A stretch of DNA of 64,000 bases from Candidatus Omnitrophota bacterium (lineage in GTDB: Bacteria > Omnitrophota > Gorgyraeia > Gygaellales > Profunditerraquicolaceae), in the NCBI GenBank assembly GCA_028713155.1, contig JAQTPA010000003.1, positions 13,966 through 77,965 of the forward strand, in the 5' to 3' direction. Shown here in pieces: positions 10,409-34,657 of the stretch. The notes under the pieces were generated by a model. It was not told the origin of the DNA. It saw nothing but the letters and a program-made list of their open reading frames with translations, and did not search any database. The stretch's first letter is position 1. Every line of letters starts with the position of its first letter. The position numbers and the translations under genes were made by a program.

Positions 10409-10412
<4 letters not shown>

Positions 10413-15547: not shown

Positions 15548-15557
15548 TTGACTATTA

Positions 15558-15583
15558 AGTGGATGGAAGTGGATTAAAGTGGA
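15558..15583 (+). promoter_or_regulatory. Candidate MraZ operator: three direct AGTGGA repeats at 10-bp spacing
   Basis: AGTGGA at 15558-15563, 15568-15573 and 15578-15583, immediately downstream of the -10 element. MraZ operators in other bacteria are arrays of GTGG-type direct repeats with helical periodicity. Confidence 0.5.
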
Positions 15584-15615
15584 GCCTGCCTACCGGCAGG
15601 CAGGGAGCTTAAGCC

Positions 15616-16053
15616 ATGTTCTATGGCGAGTATCTGCATTCTATAGACCGCAAAGGGCGTTTAATATTGCCTGCCAAATTTCGCGAAGCAGCCAAGGCGC
15701 ATTTCGTGGAAAAATTCTTTGTGACCCGGGGATTAGATAATTGCCTTTTTATGCTCAGCGAAGAAGAGTGGCGGGCTCAGGAATCCAAATTTAAATCCAT
15801 ATCTTTCACCAAAGCTGAATCGCGTAAATTTAACCGTCTTTATTTTTCCGGCGCTGTCGAAGTAAATTTTGATACGCAAGGAAGAATCCTCTTGCCGCAA
15901 TACTTAAAAGATTTTGCCGAGATTAAAAAAGATGTGGTTATCGTCGGAGTTTCTAACCGCATTGAGATTTGGGCTAAAGATAAGTGGTCAGAGTTTTATG
16001 GAAATTCCCGGCAGTCTTTTGAAGAGATTGCCGAGAAATTGATGGATGTCTAA
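15616..16053 (+). CDS. mraZ: Transcriptional regulator MraZ
   Basis: MFYGEY..S.D.KGR..LPAKFR, duplicated DXXXR halves, 145 aa. First gene of the dcw cluster. Confidence 0.9.
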   Translation: MFYGEYLHSIDRKGRLILPAKFREAAKAHFVEKFFVTRGLDNCLFMLSEEEWRAQESKFKSISFTKAESRKFNRLYFSGAVEVNFDTQGRILLPQYLKDFAEIKKDVVIVGVSNRIEIWAKDKWSEFYGNSRQSFEEIAEKLMDV

Positions 16054-16948
16054 CTTAAAATTTCACACTCCCGTGATGTTAGGGGAGGTTTTGGATTATT
16101 TAGATTTAAAACCCGGCAAGACAATTGTAGACGCAACCTTAGGTACTGCCGGGCACGCTAAAGCAATATTAGAGCGGATTCTCCCTGGAGGAAGGCTCAT
16201 TGGTATTGACCGCGATGCCACATCTTTAGCGGTCGGCCGCCAACGCCTGAGTGAATTTGGGTCCGCCTGTGAATTAGTCCACGGAAATTTCGTGGAGATA
16301 AATACGCTCTTAGAAAATCTGAAAGTCAAAAAAGTTGACGGAGTGCTTTTTGACTTGGGGATATCTTCCTTTCAGCTTCAGGACGCCAGAAGGGGCTTTA
16401 GTTTCCAGAATGAAGGCCCGTTAGATATGCGTATGGACCAGGATAGCTATGTCTCGGCATACGACCTGGTGAATAACCTGAACGAAGAAGAGCTTTCCAC
16501 CTTATTGTGGAACTTCGGAGAAGAGAGGTGGCATAACCGTATCGCCCATATCCTGGTGCAGGAAAGAGAAAGGGAGCCGATTACTACCACAACGCAGCTG
16601 GCCGATATCGCAGCCAGATCCATACCGGCCAGGTACAGGCATAGGTTTTATCGGATACATCCGGCCACCCGCACTTTTCAGGCAGTACGCATTGCCGTTA
16701 ATAGAGAGCTGGAGGTGCTGGATACGGCAGTAAATAAAGCCATTATGCTCCTTGAAAAGAAGGGCAGGGTATGCGTTATTACGTTCCACTCTTTGGAAGA
16801 CCGCGCGATAAAGTTTGCGTTCCGTAAAGCCCAAAGCGAGGGACTGATAGATATCCTGACACCTAAACCTTTAACGCCGCTGGCGTTGGAAGTGGAGAGT
16901 AACCCGGCCAGCCGCTCTTCAAAACTAAGGGCGGCAAAAAGGATTTAA
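16046..16948 (+). CDS. rsmH: 16S rRNA (cytosine1402-N4)-methyltransferase
   Basis: HTPVMLGEVL, DATLGTAGHA and GIDRD SAM-binding motifs. Confidence 0.9.
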   Translation: MSNLKFHTPVMLGEVLDYLDLKPGKTIVDATLGTAGHAKAILERILPGGRLIGIDRDATSLAVGRQRLSEFGSACELVHGNFVEINTLLENLKVKKVDGVLFDLGISSFQLQDARRGFSFQNEGPLDMRMDQDSYVSAYDLVNNLNEEELSTLLWNFGEERWHNRIAHILVQEREREPITTTTQLADIAARSIPARYRHRFYRIHPATRTFQAVRIAVNRELEVLDTAVNKAIMLLEKKGRVCVITFHSLEDRAIKFAFRKAQSEGLIDILTPKPLTPLALEVESNPASRSSKLRAAKRI

Positions 16949-16954
16949 AAAGAA

Positions 16955-17323
16955 ATGAAACTGAATAAATTTTTATCCATGATTGTCTGCGTAACCCTTT
17001 TTTCGCTGCTTTATGTTTACCAGCAGACCGAAATCCTAAGGCTGGCTTATTCCGAACAAAGGCAATATGCGGTCTTCCAGAAGTTGTTGGATAGGAACAG
17101 CATTCTAAGGTATAATATTGAAAAGAACTGTTCATTGGTAAATATCGGCGGCAGTGTATCCAATAGTTCAGATTTCCAGATGCCCGATAAATACCAGTTA
17201 GCAAGGCTAGTCCCTTCTAAGGAAGGGGTTACTTTTACTCAAGGGGCAGCAAATAAAGAGACTCTGTTGGCGCGTATCTTTGGTATTAAAAGGCAGGCCG
17301 AAGCCAGGACCATCAACCCGTAG
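16955..17323 (+). CDS. ftsL: Cell division protein FtsL-like
   Basis: Small bitopic protein (single TM, then a coiled coil) in the conserved position between rsmH and ftsI. Confidence 0.6.
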   Translation: MKLNKFLSMIVCVTLFSLLYVYQQTEILRLAYSEQRQYAVFQKLLDRNSILRYNIEKNCSLVNIGGSVSNSSDFQMPDKYQLARLVPSKEGVTFTQGAANKETLLARIFGIKRQAEARTINP

Positions 17324-17344
17324 ATTTATTAATCAAAACTTAAT

Positions 17345-19063
17345 GTGTATATAAGCAATTATCGCCGCAAGGCTGAGGCGGTATTTCTATTTTTCCTCGC
17401 TTTTCTAATTTTTTGCATTGCGCGCCTGCTTTACATCCAGTTCTTCAATTCCACCTACCTATCCGGTATTGCCAGGAAACAACACAATCTTTTTGTAGAA
17501 TTGGAGCCTGTGCGCGGAGTTATCTATGATTGTAATTTAAAACCGCAGACTTTGAATTTACCTGCGCCTTCACTTTATGCTTCACCCAACACTATAAAAG
17601 ATAGCGATAAAGAACGCATTATTGCTGCACTCCCCGGAATATTGAATATGGACCAGGATTATCTAAGGGGCAGGTTAGCGCGTAAAAAATATTTTGTCTG
17701 GCTGGCCCGCAAAATAACCCCTCAGGAGGAAGCGGCAGTAAAAAAATTAAATATTAAAGGATTGGGTTTTTTGAGAGAAACCAAGCGCAGCTATCCGAAT
17801 ACCTACCTGGCCAGCCAGATCATCGGTTTTGCCGGCTTGGATAATACCGGTTTAGAAGGTATCGAGCTTTACCTGGATAAATATTTAAAAGGCGCTCCGG
17901 GCTGGGCGATATTTTTACGGGACGCGCGGCAGAAAAAATTGGATATTTGGGAGAAGATGGTCCTGCCCAGGGACGGAAATGATATAGTTTTAACTATTGA
18001 CCAGGTGATTCAGTATATTGCCGAACGCGAACTGGATAAGGCCTTCAAAACCTACCATGCCAAAGGCGCAAGCATTGTTGTTATGGATCCGCACACAGGA
18101 AAGATCCTGGCTTTAGCCAACCGGCCTACGTATGATTTAAATGAGCATAGTAATGTAAGCAAGGACCAGACGCGTGACCGGGCCATCTGTGATTTATTTG
18201 AGCCGGGCTCAGTATTTAAAATCGTTACTGCTTCAGCTGCGCTGGAGGAGAAGAGGGTTGGTGAAGAAGACAAGTTTTTCTGCGAAAACGGGTCTTATCG
18301 CGTGGCTAACCACACCTTGCATGACCATAAGCCGCACGGGTGGCTCACCTTTAGAGAGGTAATTGAAGAATCCAGTAATATCGGCACGACTAAAGTCGCC
18401 CAGTTACTGGGGCCGAATACCGTATATAAGTATGTAAGATTATTCGGTTTCGGCTCTAAGTTGGGGATAGATTTACCGGGAGAGATATCCGGGATGATTA
18501 AGGAGCCGCGTTTTTGGTCTAAGACTTCCATAGGCGCGGTCCCCATCGGCCAGGAGGTAGGCGTAACCGCGCTGCAGCTGGTCAGCGCTATTTCCGTGAT
18601 CGCCAACGGCGGCCAGTTGATGCGCCCATTTGTGATAGAAGAAATCCGCGACAAGCAGGGGAAAGTAATCAAAAGAACGTCTCCGGTATTAATCCGTAAG
18701 GTCATATCCCTGGAAACTGCCTCCAGGATGACCAAGATACTCACCGGCGCAGTGGAAGAGGGTACCGGGAGAATGGCCCAGGTTCCCGGATTTACCGCTG
18801 CTGGAAAAACCGGAACCGCCCAGAAGTTAGAGCCCAACGGCGCATATTCACATAATAAATTCGTGGCTTCCTTTATCGGTTTTGCGCCTGCCGAAGACCC
18901 TTTAGTTGCTATCGTAGTGTCGGTAGACGAGCCGCATCCGTATTATTTCGGAGGCGTAGTCGCTGCTCCGGTGTTCAAGAATGTTGCTGCCGATGTGGTA
19001 AGATACCTAAAAACCAAACAGTCCTTGGCCGAAGACTTAAATGCAAATCGCAGAGCTCGTTAA
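17345..19063 (+). CDS. ftsI: Peptidoglycan D,D-transpeptidase FtsI (PBP3)
   Basis: N-terminal TM helix, PBP dimerisation domain, and transpeptidase motifs SVFK, SSN, KTGT. GTG start is inferred. Confidence 0.85.
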   Translation: MYISNYRRKAEAVFLFFLAFLIFCIARLLYIQFFNSTYLSGIARKQHNLFVELEPVRGVIYDCNLKPQTLNLPAPSLYASPNTIKDSDKERIIAALPGILNMDQDYLRGRLARKKYFVWLARKITPQEEAAVKKLNIKGLGFLRETKRSYPNTYLASQIIGFAGLDNTGLEGIELYLDKYLKGAPGWAIFLRDARQKKLDIWEKMVLPRDGNDIVLTIDQVIQYIAERELDKAFKTYHAKGASIVVMDPHTGKILALANRPTYDLNEHSNVSKDQTRDRAICDLFEPGSVFKIVTASAALEEKRVGEEDKFFCENGSYRVANHTLHDHKPHGWLTFREVIEESSNIGTTKVAQLLGPNTVYKYVRLFGFGSKLGIDLPGEISGMIKEPRFWSKTSIGAVPIGQEVGVTALQLVSAISVIANGGQLMRPFVIEEIRDKQGKVIKRTSPVLIRKVISLETASRMTKILTGAVEEGTGRMAQVPGFTAAGKTGTAQKLEPNGAYSHNKFVASFIGFAPAEDPLVAIVVSVDEPHPYYFGGVVAAPVFKNVAADVVRYLKTKQSLAEDLNANRRAR

Positions 19064-20477
19064 ATTAATAAAAAATCAGGAAATCAGCGGTTTAAGTTCT
19101 AATTCCCGGCTGGTTAGGAAAAATTCCATTTTTGTGGCTGTCAAGGGGAGCCGAAAAGACGGGAGCAGGTTTATTAATGAAGCGGTGGACAGGGGAGCGA
19201 AGTTTGTGGTCTGCGATGCAGGAGTAAAAGTAAACCGCTTTAAACCAGCGGAATTTATAAGAGTAAAAAATACGCGTTTGGCCCTGGCTGGATTAGCTAG
19301 CCAGTTTTACCGCAATCCATCCCGCAAGGTCAAGGTTATCGGGATTACCGGGACTAACGGCAAGACTACCATTACTTATCTGCTTGAGGCGATTTTGAAA
19401 GAAGCAAAATTTTCTTCCGGCGTAATCGGCACGATTAATTATCGTTTTAAGGATAAAGTCATTCCGGCAAAGAACACAACGCCCGGGCCGGTAGAGCTTC
19501 AATCTATACTGGCGCGTATGGAAAAAGAAAAAATCAAATACGCGGCAGTGGAGGTCTCCTCGCATGCTTTAGACCAGGAACGGGTTGGCCAGGTGCATTT
19601 CCATTCGGCGATATTTACCAACTTGACCCGGGATCACCTGGACTATCATAGGACCCTGGAAGGGTATTTTAAGGCCAAGCTGAAATTATTTAGAAATCTC
19701 AGTTTAAGCTCGTTCGCCGTAATTAATAATGACAACAGGTATGCGGGCAGGATTAAAAAGGTTACTTGCGCTAAAATAATTACCTATGGGATAGATAATA
19801 AAGCGGAAGTGTTAGCCAGGGATATTAAGTTTGACGTCAGGCATACGGAGTTTAAGCTTTTATTCTGCGGGAGAGAGATAAAATTCCGGATAAATTTAAT
19901 CGGCAGGCACAATGTTTATAATACTTTAGCCAGCATTGCCTGGGCGCTTAAGGCAGGCATCAGTTTAAAAGTTATTAAATCCGCCTTGGAAAATTTTTCT
20001 CTTGTTCCGGGGAGGCTGGAACGGATAAATTCTCCAAAAGGTTTTTGCGTATTTGTTGATTACGCGCATACCGATGACGCCCTGAAAAATGCCCTTACTG
20101 CCTTAAGGCAGTTGTCCCCCAAAAGAATCATTACGCTTTTTGGCTGCGGCGGGGAGCGCGATAGGCTCAAGCGGCCTAAAATGGGCAGGGTGGTAACCGC
20201 TCTATCGGATTTTGCAGTAATTACCAGCGACAACCCCCGTTCGGAAGATCCGGCGGGTATAATCAGGGATATCCGCAGAGGCATAAAAAAGAATAATTAT
20301 TGCGCAATCCCTGACCGGAAAAGAGCGATTCAGAAAGTCCTGTCACTGGCCGGCAGGGGCGATATCGTATTATTGGCGGGCAAGGGCCATGAAAATTATC
20401 AGGTCTTAAAAGCTAAGGCCATACACTTTGATGACCGGAAGGAAGTCAGGAGATGTTTAAAGTTTCCGAATTATTAA
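19041..20477 (+). CDS. murE: UDP-N-acetylmuramoyl-L-alanyl-D-glutamate--2,6-diaminopimelate ligase
   Basis: GITGTNGKTT P-loop and a DNPR motif (TSDNPRSEDP) indicating meso-DAP specificity. Confidence 0.9.
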   Translation: MQIAELVKLIKNQEISGLSSNSRLVRKNSIFVAVKGSRKDGSRFINEAVDRGAKFVVCDAGVKVNRFKPAEFIRVKNTRLALAGLASQFYRNPSRKVKVIGITGTNGKTTITYLLEAILKEAKFSSGVIGTINYRFKDKVIPAKNTTPGPVELQSILARMEKEKIKYAAVEVSSHALDQERVGQVHFHSAIFTNLTRDHLDYHRTLEGYFKAKLKLFRNLSLSSFAVINNDNRYAGRIKKVTCAKIITYGIDNKAEVLARDIKFDVRHTEFKLLFCGREIKFRINLIGRHNVYNTLASIAWALKAGISLKVIKSALENFSLVPGRLERINSPKGFCVFVDYAHTDDALKNALTALRQLSPKRIITLFGCGGERDRLKRPKMGRVVTALSDFAVITSDNPRSEDPAGIIRDIRRGIKKNNYCAIPDRKRAIQKVLSLAGRGDIVLLAGKGHENYQVLKAKAIHFDDRKEVRRCLKFPNY

Positions 20478-21799
20478 AAGCTACTTGCGGTGAGCTTATT
20501 TCAGGCAGTAAAGATACTCTGGCAAAGGGTATTTCCATAGACTCGCGTACCATTAAAAAAAACGAAGCCTTCATTGCGATCAAGGGCGATAATTTTGACG
20601 GCCAGGATTTTATTCCGGAAGCAGTCAAGAGAGGCGCTGGTTGCCTAATAACGCAAAAAGAAGTCAGGCAAAAGGGCGTTACATCTATTAGGGTTGATGA
20701 CACAGCCCGCGCCCTGGGGGAGATTGCCTGCTTTAACCGTAAAAGATTTAAAGATATTCCGGTGATTGCGGTCACTGGTTCCAACGGCAAGACTACGGTT
20801 AAAGAGATGATTGCGGGTGTCCTTTCCCGGAAGTTCAAAGTGCTTAAGAATGAAGGGACCAGGAATAACCATATCGGCCTTCCGCTTACGTTGTTAAAAT
20901 TAGATAATTCCTATGATATCGCGGTTTTAGAAATAGGCACTAATCATTTTGGGGAAGTCGAATACCTTACCCGGATAGCTTGTCCGAATATCGGCGTAAT
21001 TACCAATATCGGGCCGGCGCACCTGGAATATTTTAGAAGTTTAAACGGAGTCTTTAAGGAGAAGTATAGCTTGCTTGGCGGATTGCAAAACCCCGCTATC
21101 GCCATATTGAATTCGGATGACGCTTTTTTAAGAAGGATTGCGCTTACAAAAACGCCATCTCCCTTTATTTTAAGTGTAGGATTAAAGCATAAAAGCGACT
21201 TTTTCGCCAGCGGGATTAGCTGCGTCCGCGGCAGGCCAGTTTTTAAGGTAAATCAAAGATTTAAATTTGCATTAAAGACGCTAGGGTATTATAATATCTA
21301 CAACAGCCTTTTTGCTATAGCGGTGGGGAGGGCTTTCGGTTTGAGCTACCGGGATATCTCTTGCGGGTTAGCCGGCTTTAGCCTTCCTGAGGGCAGGCTT
21401 AATTTTATAGAGATAGAGGGAATAAGGTTTATTGATGATACCTATAATTCCAATCCTCTTTCACTAAAGCACGCTTTGGGAGTTTTAGATAATCTTTCCG
21501 TTAGAGGAAAGAAGATCTTTGTTATGGGTGATATGCTGGAGTTAGGGGATTTGAGCCGGGCTTTACACGCTCAAGCCATAAGAGAGGCACTCAAGGTTGC
21601 GGATGCGCTGATAACGGTAGGCGAGCTTACCCGGGCGTGTTTAAATAAAAACAGCAGCGCTAAAAATAAAATATTTAACTGTGCTAGCGCTTCTGAAGCC
21701 CGCAGGATTCTGTTGGAAAAAGTGGGCGTGGTCCCGGGCGATATCGTTTTAGTCAAGGGTTCCCGCAGGATGAAAATGGAAGAGGTCCTTAAAATCTAG
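20453..21799 (+). CDS. murF: UDP-N-acetylmuramoyl-tripeptide--D-alanyl-D-alanine ligase
   Basis: VTGSNGKTT P-loop and Mur ligase central and C-terminal domains. Confidence 0.88.
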   Translation: MFKVSELLKATCGELISGSKDTLAKGISIDSRTIKKNEAFIAIKGDNFDGQDFIPEAVKRGAGCLITQKEVRQKGVTSIRVDDTARALGEIACFNRKRFKDIPVIAVTGSNGKTTVKEMIAGVLSRKFKVLKNEGTRNNHIGLPLTLLKLDNSYDIAVLEIGTNHFGEVEYLTRIACPNIGVITNIGPAHLEYFRSLNGVFKEKYSLLGGLQNPAIAILNSDDAFLRRIALTKTPSPFILSVGLKHKSDFFASGISCVRGRPVFKVNQRFKFALKTLGYYNIYNSLFAIAVGRAFGLSYRDISCGLAGFSLPEGRLNFIEIEGIRFIDDTYNSNPLSLKHALGVLDNLSVRGKKIFVMGDMLELGDLSRALHAQAIREALKVADALITVGELTRACLNKNSSAKNKIFNCASASEARRILLEKVGVVPGDIVLVKGSRRMKMEEVLKI

Positions 21800-22888
21800 A
21801 TGTTCTATAATTTACTCTATCCGCTCCACGACATAATTTCTGCTTTTAATATCTTTCGCTACATAACTTTCCGCGCGGCCATGGCGGTCCTTACCAGTTT
21901 TATCATCAGTTTATTGTTCGGTCCGATCATTATCAGGAAGTTAAAGGCGTTAAAGGTCGGGGAAAAAATCAATAAAGGCGATAGCCTAAAATTGGATGAC
22001 CTGCACCGTTCTAAAACCGATACTCCGACTATGGGTGGGCTGCTTATATTGGCGGCAGTAGTGGCTTCTACACTTTTATGGGCTGACCTTTCCAACAAGT
22101 ATATCTGGGTGGTGCTCTTCAGCACTCTCTGGCTGGGGATAACCGGCTTTGCCGATGATTATTTGAAACAAATCAAGAATAAATCCAGGGGGCTGAGCGT
22201 CAGGGCGAAATTAATCAGCCAGATAATCCTGGGTCTGATTCTGGGTGTTATTTTCTTAATCAGTTTTCAAAATAGTCTGAAGCTGGATGTGCCGTTTATG
22301 AAGCATATCTCCCTGGATTTAGACGGCCTCTATATAATCTTTGTGATTTTAGTCGTAGCCGGTACGTCTAACGCGGTGAACCTGACTGATGGGCTGGATG
22401 GTCTGGCTATCGGCATTGTAGTTATGGTTGCCCTGGCTTTTAGTATCTTAAGCTATGTCTCAGGCAACATCAAATTAAGCGAATACCTGCTCGTCCCGTA
22501 TATTAAGGGGAGCGGCGAATTGACGGTTTTCTGCGCCAGTATCCTGGGTGCAGGTTTAGGTTTTTTGTGGTTTAACTGTTATCCGGCGTCTATTTTTATG
22601 GGAGATGTCGGGTCATTAGCTTTGGGCGGGGCGCTGGGGACAGTAGCGTTATTAATCCGCAAGGAATTACTTTTAGTTATCGTAGGCGGGATATTCGTCG
22701 TAGAGGCATTATCCGTGATTTTACAGGTGGGCTCATTCCGGCTGACCCGGAAACGTATTTTTAAGATCGCGCCGCTCCATCATCACTTTCAATTTCTTAA
22801 CTGGTCGGAGAATAAAGTCATTGTCAGGTTCTGGATTATTGCGGCTCTCCTGGCGCTCTTGACAATAGTGACTTTGAAGATCCGTTAA
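21800..22888 (+). CDS. mraY: Phospho-N-acetylmuramoyl-pentapeptide transferase
   Basis: Polytopic membrane protein with NAVNLTDGLDGLA and the HHHF..L motif. Confidence 0.9.
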   Translation: MFYNLLYPLHDIISAFNIFRYITFRAAMAVLTSFIISLLFGPIIIRKLKALKVGEKINKGDSLKLDDLHRSKTDTPTMGGLLILAAVVASTLLWADLSNKYIWVVLFSTLWLGITGFADDYLKQIKNKSRGLSVRAKLISQIILGLILGVIFLISFQNSLKLDVPFMKHISLDLDGLYIIFVILVVAGTSNAVNLTDGLDGLAIGIVVMVALAFSILSYVSGNIKLSEYLLVPYIKGSGELTVFCASILGAGLGFLWFNCYPASIFMGDVGSLALGGALGTVALLIRKELLLVIVGGIFVVEALSVILQVGSFRLTRKRIFKIAPLHHHFQFLNWSENKVIVRFWIIAALLALLTIVTLKIR

Positions 22889-22896
22889 CCTATTCC

Positions 22897-24165
22897 ATGA
22901 AGAATAAGGATTGTTTTAAAGGTAAGCAGGTCCTGGTCGCAGGCCTTGCGCGCAGCGGGGTGGCCTCGGCAAATCTGCTTTATGATTTAGGTGCGCAAGT
23001 TTTTATTACGGATAATCAGGATAACGCAAATATCCGCCGGGCCTTAAGCCAGTTGAAATCAAAAGATATCAAAGTAGAGCTAGGCAAGCACTCGCGGGAT
23101 TTTGTCAGAGGTAAAGACAGCGTTGTTGTTTCTCCCGGGATCCCCAATAATGCCTTACCCGTTATTTGGGCTAAAGATGAAAATATCCCCGTAATCAGCG
23201 AAATTGAATTGGCCTGGATTCTGTGCCCCGCGCAGGTTATTGCCGTAACCGGGACCAACGGTAAAACCACAGTTACGACTTTAATCGGGAAAGTGCTTAG
23301 CGCCGCGGGCAAAAGAGTCTTTACCTGCGGGAATATCGGCAGGCCTTTTTGCGCGGAAGTAGGGAAAATGCAGGAAGGGGATTTTGCGGTGTTGGAAATA
23401 AGTTCTTTCCAGCTGGAGTATATAGATACGTTTAAGCCTAAGATTTGCGTGTTTCTTAATTTAAGCCGTAACCATCTTGACCGTTATAAAGATATGGCGG
23501 AGTACCTTGCGGCTAAAAAACGGATATTCCAAAACCAGGATGCCGCGGATTATGCAGTTTTAAATTATGATGATCCGGCTATCCGCTCTTTGGCCAAAGA
23601 GCTAAAATCAACGACCGTCTATTTTCGTAAAAAAGAAGGCCTGAACCCGAATCAGTCAGCGGTCCTGAGCGTAGCTGCGCTACTCGGCATAAATAAAGAT
23701 TCGGTAATGAAGGTTTTCGGGGAATTTAAAGGCGTAGAACACCGCCTGGAAGATGTCCTTGAAATTAACGGAGTGCGGTTTATTAATGATTCCAAGTCTA
23801 CGACTACCGAGGCCACTGTCTGGGCTTTGAATAATTTAAGCGGACCCCTGATTTTGATCGCCGGAGGGAGGGAGAAGGGAAATGATTATAGCAAGGCCGT
23901 GGAATTGGCCGCTAAAAAAGTAAAAGCCGCTGTTTTAATCGGAGAGGCAAAGGAAAAAATAAAAAAAGTATTTTCCGGTTCGCTTAATACGCTTGAGGCA
24001 GCGACGCTGGAAGAGGCGGTAAAGAAAGCTTACCGGTTGGCCCTCCCGGGAGATTGCGTTTTGTTCTCGCCTATGTGTAAGAGCTTCGATATGTTTTCTG
24101 ATTACGAAGACAGGGGCAGGTTTTTTAAAAATATAGTTTTTAAATTGGATAAAGCGAAGGTTTAA
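22897..24165 (+). CDS. murD: UDP-N-acetylmuramoylalanine--D-glutamate ligase
   Basis: VTGTNGKTT P-loop and an N-terminal Rossmann-like motif GLARSG. Confidence 0.88.
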   Translation: MKNKDCFKGKQVLVAGLARSGVASANLLYDLGAQVFITDNQDNANIRRALSQLKSKDIKVELGKHSRDFVRGKDSVVVSPGIPNNALPVIWAKDENIPVISEIELAWILCPAQVIAVTGTNGKTTVTTLIGKVLSAAGKRVFTCGNIGRPFCAEVGKMQEGDFAVLEISSFQLEYIDTFKPKICVFLNLSRNHLDRYKDMAEYLAAKKRIFQNQDAADYAVLNYDDPAIRSLAKELKSTTVYFRKKEGLNPNQSAVLSVAALLGINKDSVMKVFGEFKGVEHRLEDVLEINGVRFINDSKSTTTEATVWALNNLSGPLILIAGGREKGNDYSKAVELAAKKVKAAVLIGEAKEKIKKVFSGSLNTLEAATLEEAVKKAYRLALPGDCVLFSPMCKSFDMFSDYEDRGRFFKNIVFKLDKAKV

Positions 24166-24167
24166 AT

Positions 24168-25262
24168 ATGGTCCGTAATATCAGGGTAAGTTTATTTACC
24201 GTTGCCGTGATCCTCATGTGCATCGGGGTAGTGATGATTTACAGCTCTTCCAGTATTTATGCCTGGGAAAAGTATAAGGATGGTTTCTTCTTTCTGAAAA
24301 GGCATCTTATTTTTATGCTTATCGGCGGCGTCCTGACTTTTTTCTTTATGAGCATTGATTACCGAAAGCTTAAGGTATTTGCCCGGCCGGTATTAATCAT
24401 CTCCCTGATTTTGCTGGTTTTGGTCCTTATTCCCGGTTTAGGCAGGGAGGTCTCCGGTGCGCGCAGATGGTTCAGGTTCAAATTCTTAAGTTTCCAGCCA
24501 TCGGAGCTGGCTAACCTGGCTATCATTATCTATATGGCGGATTTTATCAGCCGCAAAGGAAACCTGATGAAGACTTTTTTTAAAGGGTTCCTGGCGCCGA
24601 TGTGCGTTTTAGCCGTTTTTGCTCTGCTCATTATGCTGCAGCCGGATTTAGGCAGCACTATAGCCCTAAGCGCCGTAGTCCTGGTTATGCTTTTTGTATC
24701 CGGAGTACGCCCGGCCTATATCTTATCCTTGATTTTAGCCAGCCTGCCCGTGTTGTATTTTTTGATATTCAGCGTGGCTTACCGCAAAGCGCGGATCCTG
24801 GCATTTTTAAATCCCTGGGTAGACCCTAAAGGAAGCGGCTTCCAGATAATTCAGTCACAGGTAGCCCTGGGTTCCGGCGGTTTATTCGGCGTAGGGCTGG
24901 GTCACTCCAAGCAAAAGTTATTTTATCTTCCGGCAGCGCATACGGATTTTATTTTTTCCATAATCGGTGAAGAGCTGGGGTTAATCGGCACCATCGGCGT
25001 AATAATATTATTCATTATTTTTATCCGGCAGGGGATTAAGGTAATCAAGAGTGCCCCGGATAAATTCGGGTATTTTCTAGCCTTAGGCCTGGTAGCGATG
25101 ATTGCTTTCCGGGTGGTGATTAATATCGGAGTTTCCTGCGGGGTTTTACCTACCAAGGGCCTGCCTTTGCCGTTTATCAGTTACGGAGGGTCCTCTTTTA
25201 TTTTTGATATGATCTGCGTGGGGATACTGGTAAATATTGCACGCACCGGAGAATACCCATAA
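24168..25262 (+). CDS. ftsW: Peptidoglycan glycosyltransferase FtsW (SEDS family)
   Basis: Ten-TM SEDS signature: GS..QPSE, PAAHTDFIF.....ELG, LPTKGLPLPFISYGGSS. Confidence 0.88.
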   Translation: MVRNIRVSLFTVAVILMCIGVVMIYSSSSIYAWEKYKDGFFFLKRHLIFMLIGGVLTFFFMSIDYRKLKVFARPVLIISLILLVLVLIPGLGREVSGARRWFRFKFLSFQPSELANLAIIIYMADFISRKGNLMKTFFKGFLAPMCVLAVFALLIMLQPDLGSTIALSAVVLVMLFVSGVRPAYILSLILASLPVLYFLIFSVAYRKARILAFLNPWVDPKGSGFQIIQSQVALGSGGLFGVGLGHSKQKLFYLPAAHTDFIFSIIGEELGLIGTIGVIILFIIFIRQGIKVIKSAPDKFGYFLALGLVAMIAFRVVINIGVSCGVLPTKGLPLPFISYGGSSFIFDMICVGILVNIARTGEYP

Positions 25263-26353
25263 TGAAAATTTTGGTAGTTGCCGGCGCCAGCGGCGGGCAT
25301 ATTTTTCCCGCGGCCAGCTTTATTTGCGCCTTGCAAGATAAGCAGGAAGGAACAGAGACGCTTCTGGTCCTGGCGTCCAGGAGCATTAAGACCGGCATTG
25401 TGCTGGACAAATATAAGGTAAGGTATATCTCTATTTCCGGGATCAGCCGGAGTATTGATATCAGTAATCTCATTGCCCTGGGTAAATTCCTCAAGGGCAC
25501 CTGGGAGAGCTTGAAGATAATCGTTGAATTTAAGCCGGAGATTGTCGTTGGTTTCGGGGGGTTAGACTGCATTCCCTGTTTATTTTTCGCCTGGCTTTTT
25601 AGGATTAAGACCTTAATCCATGAACAGAATGTTTTGCCCGGACGCGCCAATCGTTTATTAGCCAAGTTCGTTGACCGGGTGGCCGTTTCTTTTAGCGAAA
25701 CAAAAGATTATCTGAATATAAACCCGGGGAAAATAGTGGTTACCGGTAACCCCTTGCGCCGGCAGTTGAAGCAAATCGATCAGGCCCGGGCCTTGGATTT
25801 TTTTGGCCTGGATAAGGATAAGTTAACGCTATTGGTGATGGGCGGAAGCCAGGGCAGCCAGCATATTAATACGGAATTTCTTAGGGCAGCGGCATTATTA
25901 AAAGATGCTTCAAAATTACAGGTTATCCATCTTACGGGAACAGGTTCTTGCGCAGCGATTAAACAGGCCTATAATAAAATAAGGATTACTGCCAGGGTTT
26001 TTGGTTTTTTTACGGATATGGAGCAAGCCTACAGTGCTTCTGACCTGGTCATCTCGCGTTCCGGAGCGACTACCGTAACAGAGTTGATATTTTTTGGGAA
26101 GCCGGCAATAATTTCTCCTTATCCTTATGCTTACAGCCATCAACTGGAGAATGCCAGGATATTAAAAGAAAAAGGCTGCGCGGTGGTAATAAAAGACGCT
26201 GAACTGGATAAGGATGTACTCAGGCAAACACTGGAATTGTTTATCAATAATCCCGCAGAGATTGAAGCAATGCGCTCAGGGTTTAGAGATCTAGCTAAGC
26301 CTGACGCGGCAAGTTTATTGGCTGAAGCGGCGTTATCTCTTGAACTACAGTAA
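25262..26353 (+). CDS. murG: UDP-N-acetylglucosamine--N-acetylmuramyl-(pentapeptide) pyrophosphoryl-undecaprenol GlcNAc transferase
   Basis: GGTGGHIFPA N-terminus and the GT28 C-terminal domain. Confidence 0.88.
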   Translation: MKILVVAGASGGHIFPAASFICALQDKQEGTETLLVLASRSIKTGIVLDKYKVRYISISGISRSIDISNLIALGKFLKGTWESLKIIVEFKPEIVVGFGGLDCIPCLFFAWLFRIKTLIHEQNVLPGRANRLLAKFVDRVAVSFSETKDYLNINPGKIVVTGNPLRRQLKQIDQARALDFFGLDKDKLTLLVMGGSQGSQHINTEFLRAAALLKDASKLQVIHLTGTGSCAAIKQAYNKIRITARVFGFFTDMEQAYSASDLVISRSGATTVTELIFFGKPAIISPYPYAYSHQLENARILKEKGCAVVIKDAELDKDVLRQTLELFINNPAEIEAMRSGFRDLAKPDAASLLAEAALSLELQ

Positions 26354-27721
26354 ATGAAAAAACATTATCATCTTATCGGCATCGGCGGTATCGGCATGAG
26401 CGGCATCGCGCAGCTGCTTTTAGCCTGCGGCTGTAAAGTAAGCGGTTCAGACCTTAAGGAAAACCGGATTACCGCGAGCCTTAAGGAATCCGGGGCGCAA
26501 GTTTTCTTAGGGCATAATGCCGGGAATATCCGGGGAGTGGACGCCGTGGTTTATTCCTCGGCGATAAAAGAAGATAATCCTGAACTCATCGAGGCGAGGA
26601 AACAAAGCCTGCCTTTAGTTGTACGCGCCCAGGCCCTGGCCGAGCTTATGCAGGATAAGACCGTGATCACTGTTAGCGGCAGCCACGGCAAAACCACTAC
26701 AACTTCTTTAGTTGCGTATCTGTTGCTTGAAGCAGGGCTTTTTCCTACTGTGGCCGTAGGAGGGATCCTTAAAAACATAGATACTAATGCCTGCTTAGGC
26801 GACGGTAAATTCTTCGTGGCTGAAGCGGATGAATCCGACGGCTCTTTCCTGTATTATAAGCCGAAATATTCCATTGTTACCAATATTGACCGCGAGCACC
26901 TGGATTACTATAAGAGCTTCGGAAAAGAGATTGACGCTTTCAGGGAGTTCCTGAACAGGACAGATGAGGATGGCTGTGTTTTTTGTTCGGGAGACGACGC
27001 TAATCTAAGGGAAATTCTCAAAAGTTACCGGAAAAAATACGTCTTATTCGGGTTAAAAGAAACCAGCCAGGTTTATCCTGAAAATATAAAATTAGACGGA
27101 TTAACCAGCGAATTTGACTGTTATTATAAAGATAAATTTATAGCCAGGTTTAACCTTGCCCTGGGCGGAGAGCATAATATCTCCAACGCTTTGGCAGTGG
27201 TTGCTTTGGGGATCGAGTTAGGCATAGGTTTAGAATTTATCCAGAAGGCGCTCTCCGGATATAAGGGGGCGCGAAGGCGCCTAGAGATAAAATTTAAGGA
27301 TCATAATTATACGGTTATTGATGATTACGCGCATCATCCGACGGAGATCCAGGCTACCCTCAAATGCGTTGCCAATTTAAAGGCTAAGAGGTCTATTGCC
27401 ATATTCCAGCCGCACCGTTATACGCGCACGCAGTTACTTCTGGACGAGTTTGCCAAAAGTTTTGACAGTATAGACCATTTGGTCATTACGGACATCTACG
27501 CAGCCAGCGAACCGCCTATTCCGGGGGTGAGCGCTCAACTCCTCTGTGAAAAAATAAAGGAGCATAAGCCAGGGGAAACAGTTAATTTTATTCCCAAAGA
27601 AAAAATCATAGAGCATGTTTTAGGGATCTTAAAATCCGGCGACCTGGTAATTACTCTAGGGGCAGGAGATATAGTAAAGGTAAGCGATGAATTGGCCGAG
27701 AGGTTGCAGGGCAAAAGCTGA
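26354..27721 (+). CDS. murC: UDP-N-acetylmuramate--L-alanine ligase
   Basis: HLIGIGGIGMSGIA N-terminus and VSGSHGKTTTT P-loop. Confidence 0.9.
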   Translation: MKKHYHLIGIGGIGMSGIAQLLLACGCKVSGSDLKENRITASLKESGAQVFLGHNAGNIRGVDAVVYSSAIKEDNPELIEARKQSLPLVVRAQALAELMQDKTVITVSGSHGKTTTTSLVAYLLLEAGLFPTVAVGGILKNIDTNACLGDGKFFVAEADESDGSFLYYKPKYSIVTNIDREHLDYYKSFGKEIDAFREFLNRTDEDGCVFCSGDDANLREILKSYRKKYVLFGLKETSQVYPENIKLDGLTSEFDCYYKDKFIARFNLALGGEHNISNALAVVALGIELGIGLEFIQKALSGYKGARRRLEIKFKDHNYTVIDDYAHHPTEIQATLKCVANLKAKRSIAIFQPHRYTRTQLLLDEFAKSFDSIDHLVITDIYAASEPPIPGVSAQLLCEKIKEHKPGETVNFIPKEKIIEHVLGILKSGDLVITLGAGDIVKVSDELAERLQGKS

Positions 27722-28562
27722 ATATCCATTAAAGGATAAAACTACTTTTAAGATCGGTGGCTGTGCGCAGTTTTTTAGCGAGCCAGAGGACCTTACGGAG
27801 TTAAAGTTTTTACTGGGGGCAGCCAAAAAAAATAAGCTGCCTGTTTTTGTGCTGGGCGCAGGGAGCAATCTTTTGATCAGCGATAAGGGGGTAAAGGGCC
27901 TGGTCATAAAATTAAACTCCGCGTATTTTAAGAAGGTAGCGTTGAAGGGGAGTTGTCTTGAGGCGGGAAGCGGAGTTACTCTAAGCCAGCTCATTAAATT
28001 CGCGCAAACTAAATCTCTGGCCGGTCTGGAATTCCTGGCGGGTATTCCCGGCACGCTCGGCGGGGCATTGGCCATGAATGCCGGATGCTGGGAAAGCGCC
28101 ATAGGAGATTTGGTAAAAGAAGTAGGCGTGATGGATTATAGCGGCAGGATAAAAATCTTAGGCAGCAAGGAGATTAAGTTTAGTTACCGTAAATCCAGCC
28201 TGGAAAAATATATTATTTTAAGCGCTCTCTTGGGGCTTAAAAAAAGCAGCCGTCGGCAAATCCAAAAAAATATAAGTAAATATCTTATGTTCCGGCGCAA
28301 AGCCCAGGATCTAAGCCAGCCCAATGCCGGGTGTATCTTCAGGAATCCGCCGCAGCGCTACGCCGGAAAACTCATTGATCTGTGCGGATTAAAGGGGAGA
28401 AGATCAGGGGGCGCTTTTGTTTCAGAGCGCCACGCTAATTTTATCCTGAATCTCAGCAAGGCGAGCGCAAAAGATGTATTAGGGCTTATGCGGATAATCA
28501 AAAAAAAGGTTAAGGATAAATTTAAAATAACTTTACAGCCAGAGATAAAAATATGGGCCTGA
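27687..28562 (+). CDS. murB: UDP-N-acetylenolpyruvoylglucosamine reductase
   Basis: FAD-binding N-terminus (KDKTTFKIGG, VLGAGSNLL) and C-terminal MurB domain. The only in-frame start overlaps murC by 35 nt. Confidence 0.8.
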   Translation: MNWPRGCRAKAEYPLKDKTTFKIGGCAQFFSEPEDLTELKFLLGAAKKNKLPVFVLGAGSNLLISDKGVKGLVIKLNSAYFKKVALKGSCLEAGSGVTLSQLIKFAQTKSLAGLEFLAGIPGTLGGALAMNAGCWESAIGDLVKEVGVMDYSGRIKILGSKEIKFSYRKSSLEKYIILSALLGLKKSSRRQIQKNISKYLMFRRKAQDLSQPNAGCIFRNPPQRYAGKLIDLCGLKGRRSGGAFVSERHANFILNLSKASAKDVLGLMRIIKKKVKDKFKITLQPEIKIWA

Positions 28563-29494
28563 AAGAAAAATTCGGCAGGGTAGGCGTTTTAATGGCCGGG
28601 CCTTCTACGGAGAAAAAGATCTCTCTTAAATCCGGCCAGGCGGTCTGCGCAGCGCTTCAGAGATCCGGTTTGCAGGTTACGCCCGTATTGATTAAAACCG
28701 ATAAGCTCAAGGATAATGTCCGTTTATTGAAGCTTAAGAAAATAGATTGCGCTTTTATCGCCCTCCATGGCAGGTTTGGCGAAGATGGGGAGATCCAGAA
28801 AATCTTGAGCGATCTTAAGATCCCTTACACCGGTTCAGGGGTCAGGGCCAGCCGCCTGGCCATGGATAAGGTCAGCTCGCGGAAAATATTCCAGAAATAC
28901 GGATTAAAAGTGCCGCGGTCTTGGGTGTTCAGCCGGGATACTTACCGGGGCTTTTATTGCGCTAAGTTAGGTTTGCCTTTAGTGGTTAAGCCGGCAACCC
29001 ACGGTTCGAGCATAGGCCTTTCTATCGTGGGTAAATTAAAAGATATCCCCGCGGCAATAGAACTGGCTTTTAAATTTGATAAAAAAATAATTATTGAAGA
29101 ATATATAAAAGGCAGGGAGCTTACTGTCGGGATATTGGAAGAAAAAGCCATGCCGGTAATCGAGATCGTCCCCAAGCGCGCCTTCTTTGATTTCCAGGCT
29201 AAATATCAGAAAGGCCTGACCCGTTATATTGTACCGGCTAAATTATCCCCGGGTCTTACCCGGAGCGTAAAGGAAGCGGCATTGTCCGCGCATAAACTCC
29301 TGGGCTGCATCGGTTGTTCCAGGGTAGATATTATCCTGGATGAGAAAAACACGCCGTTTATCCTGGAAGTAAATACCATCCCGGGGTTGACCGCAACCAG
29401 CCTGCTGCCCAAGGCGGCTAAAAAATCAGGCATAAGTTTTACCGCGCTCTGCCTTAAATTAATCAAGTTGGCATATGAAAAAAAGAAAAGTTAA
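28553..29494 (+). CDS. ddl: D-alanine--D-alanine ligase
   Basis: ATP-grasp fold with HG..GEDG and an EVNT.PG C-terminal motif. Confidence 0.88.
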   Translation: MGLKEKFGRVGVLMAGPSTEKKISLKSGQAVCAALQRSGLQVTPVLIKTDKLKDNVRLLKLKKIDCAFIALHGRFGEDGEIQKILSDLKIPYTGSGVRASRLAMDKVSSRKIFQKYGLKVPRSWVFSRDTYRGFYCAKLGLPLVVKPATHGSSIGLSIVGKLKDIPAAIELAFKFDKKIIIEEYIKGRELTVGILEEKAMPVIEIVPKRAFFDFQAKYQKGLTRYIVPAKLSPGLTRSVKEAALSAHKLLGCIGCSRVDIILDEKNTPFILEVNTIPGLTATSLLPKAAKKSGISFTALCLKLIKLAYEKKKS

Positions 29495-30287
29495 TTTTCC
29501 AACCAGGGTTTTAGTTTTTAGTTTGGTAATTCTTCTTGCCTTGTTATTTATTCTGGGTTATATTTGGAGAGTCTTGTCCGCGGCGGATTATTTTTTGGTC
29601 AGGGATGTTATCGCGAATCAGGTTTCCAATATCGACCTTTCTTACCTCAAAGGGAAAAACATTTTCAGCCTTTCCCTGCCGAGAGAATCGGAGAATATCG
29701 CCAGGTTCTGCCCGGATTGTTCGCGAGTCAGACTGGCCAGGATCATACCCGACCGTATCTTCGTGGAGTTCGTTAAACGTAAGCCTGTTGCTTTTATAAA
29801 ATTCTACCGTTATTTTGCGGTTGACGCAGAAGGGTTTATTTTTTCCAGTCCCCTTCAGCCGCAAGATTCAGGCCTGCCTGCCGGTCAGGCAGGGCTGCCG
29901 GTAATCCTGGGTCTGGAAACTAAAATCTTCGGGCCTAAAACCGGGAAGAGGTATAATAATAAGGAGCTTTCCGTCGCCCTGCTCATTCTTAAAGAGGCCG
30001 GAAAGAACCGGCTATTCAGGGACTATAAGATCCGAAAAATAAATGTAACGGGGGAAGATGATATTACGATCCAAATACCTATTTTAAGGGGGCAGGATAC
30101 TTACGCCAACTGGAAGGCCCCGGAAAAAAACGGTTTTTTGGAGGTTAAGATCGGGCAGGGCAATATCCGGGATAAGGTTGCGATTATGGCCGGCTTAATC
30201 AACCAGGAAAAACACAATCTTGACAATATAAAGTATATAGACCTGAGATTCAAGGAACCGGTGATAAAATTTAAAGATGTTAAATAA
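29475..30287 (+). CDS. ftsQ: Cell division protein FtsQ (POTRA)
   Basis: Single N-terminal TM and a POTRA-like periplasmic domain, in the conserved position between ddl and ftsA. Confidence 0.7.
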   Translation: MKKRKVNFPTRVLVFSLVILLALLFILGYIWRVLSAADYFLVRDVIANQVSNIDLSYLKGKNIFSLSLPRESENIARFCPDCSRVRLARIIPDRIFVEFVKRKPVAFIKFYRYFAVDAEGFIFSSPLQPQDSGLPAGQAGLPVILGLETKIFGPKTGKRYNNKELSVALLILKEAGKNRLFRDYKIRKINVTGEDDITIQIPILRGQDTYANWKAPEKNGFLEVKIGQGNIRDKVAIMAGLINQEKHNLDNIKYIDLRFKEPVIKFKDVK

Positions 30288-31530
30288 TTATATTTGTACT
30301 TTGGATATCGGCTCAAGCAAAATTTCTGCCTGCCTGGCGTATTTCAAAAAGAAGCGGCTGGCTAGTATTTATTTCGAATCTTTGCCTGTCCAGGGTATGC
30401 GGGAAGGCTCAATCGTAGATTCTATCGGTTTAATCGGTTCGGTCACTAAGGCCTTGAAAAACCTGAAGGCCAAATCCGGGGTAAATATTAAATTTATCTC
30501 GGTAAACATCTCCGGACAGGATATTGTTACTAAGCACAGCCACGCCATTATCCCGCTTGCCGAAAGGGGGAATAAGGTAATTACTGTTTCGGATATGCAA
30601 AAGGTAAATGAGCAGGCACGCGTCCTCGGCTCAAGCCTGGAAGAAGAAATAATCCACATGATCCCTTTTAGTTACACGATAGATTCCAAGAATAATATTC
30701 CTAACCCCCTGGGGCTTTACAGCCACAGGCTGGAAGTGGAGTTATACCTGGTCTGCGGTAAGTTATCTTCAGTGCAGAGCCTGGCCCGGGTGATTAACCA
30801 ATCGGGATATGAAATAAAAGATTTATTTTTTTCAGGCCTGGCTACCAGCAAGGCGGTCTTTAGCCCCGGAGCCAGAGAGGGCTTAAATTTATTCTGCGAT
30901 ATAGGAGGAGATACGACCGAGATACTGGTATTTAAGGACGGCCTGCTTAAGGATATCCAGGTTTTGCCTTTCGGGGGGGATGATTTAACCCGGGAGCTTT
31001 CCGATAACTTAAAAATAAATTTTGATTTAGCCGAAGATATTAAGAGGTCATACGGCATTATTGCCGGTTTCAATGAAATAGGCGAGGATAAGGAGATCTT
31101 AGTCAAAAAAAGCGAATTCTATAAACCGATAAAACAAAAACTGGTGGCAGAGATTATTACTGCTTCGGCTAAGTCCATCTGCGCAAAGATAAAAGAGGCT
31201 GTTGAGAAGAAGGCGGCGCTTTATGAAATCAATAATTTTGTGGTCGTCGGCCGGACGGTTCTGGTAGAAGGTTTTATTGAGACCCTGGAGAATGTCCTGG
31301 GCGTAGCGGTAAAGCTGGGAAGGATTACTAATTTAGAGATAGTTTCCATAATCAAGGAAAATAGTGAGTTGTCCGGCCAGAAGTATTTAACCTACCTGAC
31401 CTGTTTGGGTATGCTTTGCGAAGCGCTGGAGACTAAGCCCCCGGGAATTTTACCGCTGCACCAACCTGCCAAAAACCTTTTCCTAAAAACTGTCAACAGA
31501 GTCAAGGAAGTATATCAGGAATATTTCTAA
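30277..31530 (+). CDS. ftsA: Cell division protein FtsA
   Basis: Actin-like ATPase (LDIGSSKISA, DIGGDTTE) with a C-terminal amphipathic helix. Confidence 0.88.
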   Translation: MLNNYICTLDIGSSKISACLAYFKKKRLASIYFESLPVQGMREGSIVDSIGLIGSVTKALKNLKAKSGVNIKFISVNISGQDIVTKHSHAIIPLAERGNKVITVSDMQKVNEQARVLGSSLEEEIIHMIPFSYTIDSKNNIPNPLGLYSHRLEVELYLVCGKLSSVQSLARVINQSGYEIKDLFFSGLATSKAVFSPGAREGLNLFCDIGGDTTEILVFKDGLLKDIQVLPFGGDDLTRELSDNLKINFDLAEDIKRSYGIIAGFNEIGEDKEILVKKSEFYKPIKQKLVAEIITASAKSICAKIKEAVEKKAALYEINNFVVVGRTVLVEGFIETLENVLGVAVKLGRITNLEIVSIIKENSELSGQKYLTYLTCLGMLCEALETKPPGILPLHQPAKNLFLKTVNRVKEVYQEYF

Positions 31531-31551
31531 TAGAGGCGGTTAAGATTGGTT

Positions 31552-32592
31552 TTAAACAGAAAGGATTTTACGTGAGAAATTAACCAGGGCCTTGCGGTAA
31601 TCCTTGCGCATTTTTAGAGCTGTTATTATGCGTTCGGATTGAAGCAGCAGGTTTTTTATTTCACCCCGGGCATAATCCAAACTGCCCGTAGCGGATAAGA
31701 GCCGGCGGATCTTAAGCAGTTCTTTTTTCCCTGTTTTTTTCCCGGAGAATACTTTTTTTATCGCTGCTTTGCCTTTCCTATCGCAGTGATTATAGGCGTG
31801 CCAGACGAGCAGCGTTCTTTTGGCCTCTTTTATATCGGTAAGGTTGGATTTTCCAATTTCTTTGCTTTCGCCAAAGGTCCCGATAATATCGTCTTTAATC
31901 TGGAACGCGCAGCCAAGATGCATTCCGTAGTCAAAAAGTTTTTTTATCTGGCTGTCTTTTACTCCGGCCAGGACCGCCCCCATGGCCAGGGGGGAGGCAA
32001 AGGTATAGTTAGCGGTTTTATAAGCGTATATTTTATAAATATCATTTTTACTTATTTTCTCTATCGGTTTTATGCCCAGGAGCAGTTCAATAAATTCACC
32101 GCTTCCGGTATAGAGCGCTGCCGAGATAAGTTTTTTTAAAGCCAGATCTTTACGTTCAGGCCTTTCTCTTACTGCCAGGAACGCGTCCAGCGCCATAGCA
32201 TACATCACATCACCGATAGCAATGGCTAGGTCATCTCCCTTAAATTTAAGGTTTTTAGCGTGTTTTAAATATTTATTCAGTAATACGTGCATCGAAGGCT
32301 TACCCCGGCGCATAGCGGACTTATCGATTATATCGTCGTGGACAAGCATAAAATCATGCAGGAGCTCTAAGGATAACGCGCTGCGGTATAATCCGGGAGG
32401 CGCTTTTTTGGCGAATCCCAGATATCCGATGCAAAAAAAGATCGGCCTTATTCTTTTACCGCCGCGGGATAAGAATTCCTTTATATTACTAAAGAGTGCG
32501 GGAGAGAGCTTGCTTAAAGAATAGTTGCGGTTTAGGTCGCGGATAAATAAGCTTAATTCCCGTTCAATCCGATTTTTCATTTTCAAAAACAT
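31552..32592 (-). CDS. Polyprenyl diphosphate synthase (trans-isoprenyl diphosphate synthase family)
   Basis: First aspartate-rich motif LVHDDIIDKS and second motif KDDIIGTFG, with a K..R.P.F upstream region. Confidence 0.8.
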   Translation of the reverse strand: MFLKMKNRIERELSLFIRDLNRNYSLSKLSPALFSNIKEFLSRGGKRIRPIFFCIGYLGFAKKAPPGLYRSALSLELLHDFMLVHDDIIDKSAMRRGKPSMHVLLNKYLKHAKNLKFKGDDLAIAIGDVMYAMALDAFLAVRERPERKDLALKKLISAALYTGSGEFIELLLGIKPIEKISKNDIYKIYAYKTANYTFASPLAMGAVLAGVKDSQIKKLFDYGMHLGCAFQIKDDIIGTFGESKEIGKSNLTDIKEAKRTLLVWHAYNHCDRKGKAAIKKVFSGKKTGKKELLKIRRLLSATGSLDYARGEIKNLLLQSERIITALKMRKDYRKALVNFSRKILSV

Positions 32593-32672
32593 AAAGTTAT
32601 GTTAACATATACCTAAAACTAAAGCAAATCAATTTTCCCGGTTATTTGGACAGAAGAGATCGGTATAGAATA

Positions 32673-34654: not shown

Positions 34655-34657
34655 GCC

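Follow-up and report, generated by a model that had tools for sequence, protein, structure and literature searches.

A division and cell wall gene cluster that ends at ftsA without ftsZ in Candidatus Omnitrophota

Introduction

FtsZ is near-universal in bacteria, and each lineage that divides without it helps to define the minimal divisome. In the canonical division and cell wall (dcw) cluster of Escherichia coli and Bacillus subtilis the genes run from mraZ to ftsA in a conserved order, tightly packed behind an upstream promoter with MraZ-operator-like repeats, and end with ftsZ directly after ftsA. FtsA tethers FtsZ by means of the FtsZ C-terminal peptide, which binds to subdomain 2B. Here we analyse a 64-kb stretch of contig JAQTPA010000003.1 (hereafter the window, 64,000 nucleotides in all), whose dcw cluster shows the same mraZ to ftsA order, the same packing and similar-looking predicted upstream elements, and differs by the missing terminal ftsZ. 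The first-pass annotation of this DNA had proposed that ftsZ was relocated or possibly lost.

Two groups provide the closest described systems. Planctomycetota and Chlamydiota, of the same superphylum, are also devoid of ftsZ and keep the peptidoglycan genes as well as ftsQ, ftsW and ftsI, but they have lost ftsA too, often ftsB, and their dcw cluster is fragmented, whereas the window keeps ftsA in a contiguous cluster. The Omnitrophota in the surveys of Seymour et al. (2023) and of Pende et al. (2021) show the identical trait, i.e. no ftsZ with ftsA present, and nothing essential distinguishes them from the window. Omnitrophota separate the role of FtsA from that of FtsZ, something that Planctomycetota and Chlamydiota, having lost both, cannot do.

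The abstract of Seymour et al. (2023, PMC10066038) states that the phylum has no isolated representative. Its Supplementary Note 1 reports no ftsZ homologue across 421 Omnitrophota genomes with one exception, whose ftsZ is 89% identical to an archaeal protein and is regarded as an archaeal-like contaminant; according to the same source OLB16, which does encode ftsZ, belongs to a different phylum and was misclassified as "Omnitrophica". A KEGG Orthology (KO) list given there for one genome includes K03587-K03590 (ftsI, ftsW, ftsQ, ftsA) and K03569-K03571 (mreBCD) and jumps from K03529 to K03536, K03531 (ftsZ) being missing. FtsZ is recorded as missing from Planctomycetes, Omnitrophica and Chlamydiae by Pende et al. 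(2021, PMC8178401), whose Supplementary file 4 marks it as NA in four out of five "Omnitrophica" genomes; three of these four do have FtsA. The literature is nevertheless inconsistent, since reviews still credit Omnitrophota with FtsZ via the misclassified OLB16, and gene-order evidence is of some value here. Rivas-Marin et al. (2016, 2017) credited Omnitrophica with FtsZ from OLB16 alone, the authors flagging the doubt themselves, and a 2025 iScience paper groups Omnitrophota with phyla having well-conserved dcw genes, its text, in the part available to us, leaving ftsZ aside. The supplements of the latter paper and of a 2026 Omnitrophota complete-genome preprint held nothing usable as per-genome ftsZ calls.

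As described below, Omnitrophota very probably lost ftsZ but retained the full operon of peptidoglycan and divisome genes, ftsA among them, and the window ends its cluster at ftsA in keeping with this loss. The missing ftsZ with a retained ftsA is an already published, phylum-wide trait, of which the window is an ordinary instance and not a peculiarity of one contig; the feature flagged at first pass is genuine biology and not an artefact, but it is not new.

Results and Discussion

A complete cluster without its terminal gene

The open reading frame (ORF) map together with NCBIfam and Pfam scans shows 15 contiguous, co-oriented dcw genes at 15616-31530 of the plus strand, in the order mraZ-rsmH-ftsL-ftsI-murE-murF-mraY-murD-ftsW-murG-murC-murB-ddl-ftsQ-ftsA, which is the conserved dcw order. 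Adjacent genes either share 1-35 nt or leave a gap of 0-21 nt. The first-pass description of a canonical, tightly packed cluster agrees with this, except for its end coordinate of 32592, which takes in a polyprenyl synthase gene that is not a cluster member; the cluster ends at 31530. The individual genes are the following:

15616-16053, plus strand: mraZ (TIGR00242, 140.1 bits; cutoff 98.35)
16046-16948, plus strand: rsmH, also called mraW (TIGR00006, 315.5 bits)
16955-17323, plus strand: ftsL-like small bitopic protein, called from position and architecture only (N-terminal transmembrane segment, then a helical region)
17345-19063, plus strand: ftsI-type class B penicillin-binding protein (PBP), a transpeptidase, called from family and cluster position
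19041-20477, plus strand: murE, meso-diaminopimelate type (NF001126, 583.7 bits; cutoff 373)
20453-21799, plus strand: murF (TIGR01143, 385.6 bits)
21800-22888, plus strand: mraY (TIGR00445, 386.8 bits)
22897-24165, plus strand: murD (TIGR01087, 393.7 bits)
24168-25262, plus strand: ftsW, SEDS family (TIGR02614, 410.7 bits; cutoff 337.5)
25262-26353, plus strand: murG (TIGR01133, 273.6 bits)
26354-27721, plus strand: murC (TIGR01082, 509 bits)
27687-28562, plus strand: murB (NF010480, 331.9 bits)
28553-29494, plus strand: ddl (NF002378, 365.5 bits)
29475-30287, plus strand: ftsQ (Pfam PF03799 FtsQ_DivIB_C, 27.3 bits, cutoff 21; N-terminal transmembrane segment)
30277-31530, plus strand: ftsA, with which the cluster ends (TIGR01174, 209.9 bits; cutoff 175.85)

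Most of these genes pass curated equivalog cutoffs, the exceptions being the PBP, FtsQ and the ftsL-like ORF. The PBP matches the SpoVD, PBP2 and FtsI models best, each below its equivalog cutoff, and is called at family level only, while the ftsL-like ORF found no family match in the NCBIfam or Pfam scans.

In the window ftsZ does not follow ftsA as the terminal gene, and the first-pass observation that the cluster stops at ftsA was borne out by signature and profile searches: the tubulin signature GG[GA]TG[STA]G occurs in none of the six frames of the 64-kb window, and a hidden Markov model (HMM) of FtsZ gave no match to it at E<=10. Family scans found none of the FtsZ partners ZapA, SepF, MinCDE, FtsEX and ZipA among the other window genes.

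FtsZ is missing beside ftsA throughout the relatives

The FtsA protein was used to place the window. An identical FtsA (100%) is encoded on the NCBI Omnitrophota metagenome-assembled genome (MAG) GCA_028716405.1, and when one genome per species was scanned, FtsA proteins of 53-96% identity came up at 53 loci. Of these loci, 44 are titled Candidatus Omnitrophota or Omnitrophica, and nine bear automatic labels (Planctomycetales, Verrucomicrobiota or simply "bacterium"). Every named protein among the best 120 FtsA matches comes from Omnitrophota, so that the closest relatives of the encoded protein are found in this phylum. Judging from these FtsA matches, the organism of the window is a Candidatus Omnitrophota, within the Planctomycetes-Verrucomicrobia-Chlamydiae (PVC) superphylum.

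The survey of relatives comprised the 53 Omnitrophota species representatives and 10 Omnitrophota-like metagenomic loci, with about 10 kb on each side of ftsA. In every locus that spans it the order ddl-ftsQ-ftsA is kept. The tubulin signature is absent from loci L001-L054, and the FtsZ HMM, run with --max at E<=10 over the window and the Omnitrophota loci (875 kb in total), gave 0 matches, as it did in the 10 metagenomic loci (L055-L063 and L089). A tblastn search for a hidden or divergent FtsZ found nothing in the window and the fetched loci (best E=0.89). Thus, in the comparison with related genomes that had been suggested at first pass, each of the Omnitrophota loci, about 60 in all, is without ftsZ in the neighbourhood of ftsA.

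As a control we used metagenome contigs found by a scan with an FtsA alignment, E. coli FtsA being included in the alignment, with at least 400 nt required after ftsA. FtsZ was detected directly after ftsA in 58 of these 59 non-Omnitrophota loci, at a median gap of about 40 nt and with E-values down to 1e-163, and the FtsZ HMM is therefore validated.

Gene order after ftsA and the fate of ftsZ

What follows ftsA in most Omnitrophota is yggS, which lies within 800 nt of the ftsA stop, on the same strand and usually at less than 250 nt, in 34 of the 48 sequences that extend 900 nt or more beyond ftsA; proC, mtnP and ileS come next. The families of the block are the YggS/YlmE pyridoxal-phosphate-binding protein (TIGR00044), ProC (TIGR00112), MTAP (TIGR01694) and IleS (TIGR00392). 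An example is yggS(ylmE)-proC-mtnP-ileS at L005:11294-16635, with equivalents in about 38 other Omnitrophota loci, and the block also stands after ftsA in the metagenomic loci L055-L057 and L061. Because it is seen across the full 53-86% range of FtsA identity, ftsA-yggS-proC-mtnP-ileS is the older arrangement in Omnitrophota. The block is not found elsewhere in the 64-kb window.

This order resembles the ylm region of Firmicutes and Actinobacteria, which reads ftsZ-ylmD-ylmE-sepF-ylmG-ylmH-divIVA-ileS, and in many bacteria ylmD and ylmE come after ftsZ. The Omnitrophota block likewise starts with ylmE/yggS and ends with ileS, but it lacks ftsZ, ylmD, sepF, ylmG and divIVA and contains proC and mtnP, and in the window the whole block is replaced. 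Among the control loci, the outgroup L068, whose FtsA (30% identity) is among the most similar non-Omnitrophota FtsA proteins, reads ftsA-ftsZ-radical SAM-ylmD-...-yggS-proC-yggT-divIVA-yggU. That the genes of the block lie downstream of ftsZ in other bacteria suggests, as the simplest reading of the gene order, that ftsZ, probably together with ylmD, was removed in place, which would have joined ftsA to yggS-proC. In the ancestor of the clade the excision would have left ftsA next to yggS(ylmE)-proC-mtnP-ileS, and in the sub-clade of the window (FtsA at least 94% identical) this block would later have been replaced by the convergent polyprenyl synthase and a menA-like prenyltransferase. Neither the ftsA-yggS-proC-mtnP-ileS order nor the secondary rearrangement is mentioned in the parts of Seymour et al. 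(2023) and Pende et al. (2021) available to us.

The evidence supports that ftsZ was lost and not relocated, with the local absence coming from the searches above and the genome-wide absence taken from the literature. A simple relocation would place an intact ftsZ elsewhere in the genome under its own promoter, with only the ftsA-ftsZ linkage broken. The window covers only a small part of the genome, and Rivas-Marin et al. (2016, 2017) and the 2025 iScience paper credit Omnitrophota with FtsZ or a conserved dcw set. Yet the two surveys find no bacterial ftsZ in 421 Omnitrophota genomes (Seymour et al. 2023, PMC10066038) and no FtsZ in four true Omnitrophica genomes (Pende et al. 2021, PMC8178401), and the FtsZ-positive OLB16 is not an Omnitrophota. 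In addition, most relatives have yggS right behind ftsA, at a distance of roughly 0-440 nt, and this suggests deletion and not a split of the cluster. Relocation is therefore highly unlikely, and of the two fates proposed at first pass it is the loss that holds, given about 60 loci without ftsZ near ftsA and both published surveys.

Several points nonetheless weigh against this explanation. The genome-wide absence of ftsZ in the organism of the window rests on published MAG and single-cell surveys, the local evidence gathered here extends about 10 kb to either side of ftsA, and the published statements that give Omnitrophota FtsZ or a well-conserved dcw set (Rivas-Marin et al. 2016, 2017; the 2025 iScience paper, as far as its available text goes) point the other way. 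The FtsZ HMM was made from two sequences, although the control recovery validates it well. Finally, yggS occurs within 8 kb downstream of ftsZ in only one of the 59 control loci, so its position after ftsZ is lineage-dependent, and a single outgroup locus, L068, which carries no phylum assignment, stands behind the in-place excision.

Large ORFs were also noted near ftsA in two relatives, i.e. a 1717-aa ORF inserted between ftsA and yggS at L026:11356-16509 and ORFs of 1065 and 1153 aa following ftsA at L034:1432-8094. Omnitrophota are known for giant genes.

The junction at the end of the cluster

In the window the place where other bacteria carry ftsZ is reduced to a short junction, followed by a gene of opposite orientation, as the first-pass annotation had noted and as the ORF map and family scans confirm:

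31531-31551, no strand: junction of 21 bp between the ftsA stop (31530) and the end of the polyprenyl synthase gene (31552)
31552-32592, minus strand: convergent polyprenyl diphosphate synthase, not a dcw gene (PF00348; NCBIfam matches to geranylgeranyl and farnesyl diphosphate synthase-like models all below cutoffs)

Such an abrupt switch of orientation after 21 bp, in what is probably a metagenome assembly, could in principle indicate a chimeric contig, ftsZ having been lost at a mis-join at 31530-31552. The relatives speak clearly against it. The window and L001 are 99.89% identical, with 17 mismatches in 15,024 nt, and L002, from a different MAG, is 91.9% identical over 16.1 kb; both are colinear with the window across the junction, so that three independent assemblies agree. 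In L003 and L004 the same genes flank the junction, with insertions of 0.64 kb and 1.4 kb, respectively, exactly there, and all of the more distant Omnitrophota are without ftsZ after ftsA as well. The GC content is continuous over the junction, and the drop in GC skew is limited to one 2-kb bin at the minus-strand gene. The chimera raised at first pass is refuted by these comparisons, and an assembly artefact retains a negligible probability.

The polyprenyl synthase stands beside ftsA only in the window and L001-L004, whose FtsA proteins are at least 94% identical, and the junction is therefore a recent secondary rearrangement restricted to the sub-clade of the window. Within this sub-clade rearrangement seems to have a hot spot where the dcw cluster ends, insertions recurring in close relatives: the insertion at L003:11255-11897 encodes a GspG/PilA-like pseudopilin, and that at L004:3881-5289 a pseudopilin and a TPR protein.

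The first-pass annotation had also stated that the interval is too short for a terminator and that the convergent transcripts would collide. No intrinsic terminator or notable RNA structure is predicted at the junction on either strand (folding z-scores of +0.5 to +0.7), which agrees with the first half of the statement, while the collision of transcripts is unsupported speculation. Closely spaced convergent genes are common, and termination may be Rho-dependent (factor-dependent) or occur inside the opposing gene.

Beyond the junction, the polyprenyl synthase gene is divergently paired, over a 53-bp spacer, with a MenA/UbiA-type prenyltransferase gene, past which a pyridine-nucleotide-disulfide oxidoreductase and then a DoxX protein are encoded. 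The stretch 31552-35053 may represent a module for quinones or prenyl lipids; outside the sub-clade of the window it is not conserved.

FtsA without its usual partner

Of greater interest is the way in which FtsA functions where FtsZ is missing. The protein of the window is a genuine member of the actin-like FtsA family, scoring above the TIGR01174 cutoff and carrying the SHS2/1C subdomain (PF02491, SHS2_FTSA, and PF14450), and FtsA chains of the PDB match it at E=4e-30. In an alignment of 47 Omnitrophota sequences the 1C subdomain is the most conserved, with a mean column identity of 0.825 versus 0.68-0.73 elsewhere, the 2B subdomain having 0.73. The phosphate-binding motifs are conserved. 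The conserved C-terminal helix, a candidate membrane-targeting element, ends in QEYF in all 47 species and lines up with the membrane-targeting tail of E. coli FtsA, which ends in KEF. Overall, clear purifying selection acts on FtsA even though its usual partner, FtsZ, is not known from the phylum. The positions aligned to R300 and E303 of E. coli FtsA, which may contact the FtsZ tail, are S/A/K and L/S/E in Omnitrophota and so not conserved as charged residues; the alignment has only about 22% identity, and the point carries little weight.

The adenosine motif differs from that of E. coli. It reads VVVGRT in the window (31237-31266, residues ~321-330) and LTGGAA in E. coli; in Omnitrophota the first G is invariant and the second is replaced by R in most sequences.

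Strong conservation of FtsA including subdomain 2B would also fit a retained partner, which could be a very divergent tubulin or FtsZ-like protein, or an unrelated ring-former, encoded elsewhere in the genome; the cells would then not be truly devoid of a Z-ring. Divergent FtsZ-like families do exist in other prokaryotes. No conserved candidate ORF lies beside ftsA in the Omnitrophota loci, however, its neighbours being YggS, ProC, MTAP and IleS, and the KO, Pfam and TIGRFAM annotation of the genome set of Seymour et al. (2023, PMC10066038) contains none. The residues aligned to R300 and E303 also speak, with little weight, against such a partner. We regard such a cryptic replacement as unlikely.

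With ftsZ lost and ftsA retained, division would proceed through septal peptidoglycan synthesis by FtsW-FtsI under FtsQ/FtsL without a Z-ring, and the organiser on the cytoplasmic side would be membrane-anchored FtsA polymers, possibly together with MreB as in Chlamydiae. A further proposal, which we put forward tentatively, is that of an FtsZ-independent, FtsA-centred divisome, in which FtsA, held at the membrane by its invariant C-terminal tail and best conserved in its 1C domain, alone organises FtsQ, FtsL, FtsW and FtsI for septal peptidoglycan synthesis in ultra-small cells. Omnitrophota would then be a natural intermediate between the FtsA-FtsZ state and that of Planctomycetota and Chlamydiota, and ftsA-yggS-proC-mtnP-ileS the scar of the excision.

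The control region upstream of mraZ

Two predicted elements precede the cluster:

15519-15547, plus strand: predicted sigma-70-like promoter, TTGACA-17 nt-TATACT (consensus scan, 11 of 12 matches)
15557-15583, plus strand: three AAGTGGA direct repeats, a putative MraZ operator (starts at 15557, 15567 and 15577; exact 10-nt period)

The promoter call should be read against the 0.8 such sites expected by chance in the scanned region. The repeats begin 10 nt downstream of the -10 box. MraZ operators are direct repeats in E. coli and in Mollicutes, typically with a 10-nt period, and the AAGTGGA repeats are consistent with such an operator, which remains putative. Taken together, the dcw cluster would form a single unit, with the promoter and the MraZ-box-like repeats followed by 15 overlapping or near-touching genes. 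A GC-rich palindrome, GCCTGCC-TACC-GGCAGGC, is present at 15584-15601, between the repeats and the mraZ ribosome-binding site.

Other genes in the window

According to the family scans the remaining genes of the window are ordinary housekeeping genes. Nearly all of them lie on the plus strand, and the GC skew is positive throughout (0.02-0.16), which fits one leading-strand replichore arm; the only minus-strand genes are those at 1407-1991 and 2009-2488 and the polyprenyl synthase gene at 31552-32592. ORFs 9915-10412 (165 aa) and 36751-37929 (392 aa) have no Pfam match at E<=0.001, the latter being directly followed by a DUF1573 protein at 37930-38295. An FtsX-like permease at 40825-42015 was considered as a part of FtsEX and rejected, since it has a MacB/LolCE-type architecture with an ABC ATPase.

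An FMN riboswitch (2548-2680; Rfam RF00050, 106.6 bits) precedes the riboflavin genes at 2834-7459, which comprise ribBA, ribH and, further on, ribD and ribE, with nusB and a PHP-domain gene interleaved. A single tRNA-Pro (anticodon CGG) lies at 7574-7650, in the 467-bp gap between ribE and ligA. Consecutive genes at 43575-47565 encode a protein with a UVR motif, an ATP:guanido phosphotransferase and an AAA+ protein of the ClpC type (Clp_N and UVR domains), and this looks like the mcsA-mcsB-clpC protein-arginine-kinase quality-control operon best known from Firmicutes.

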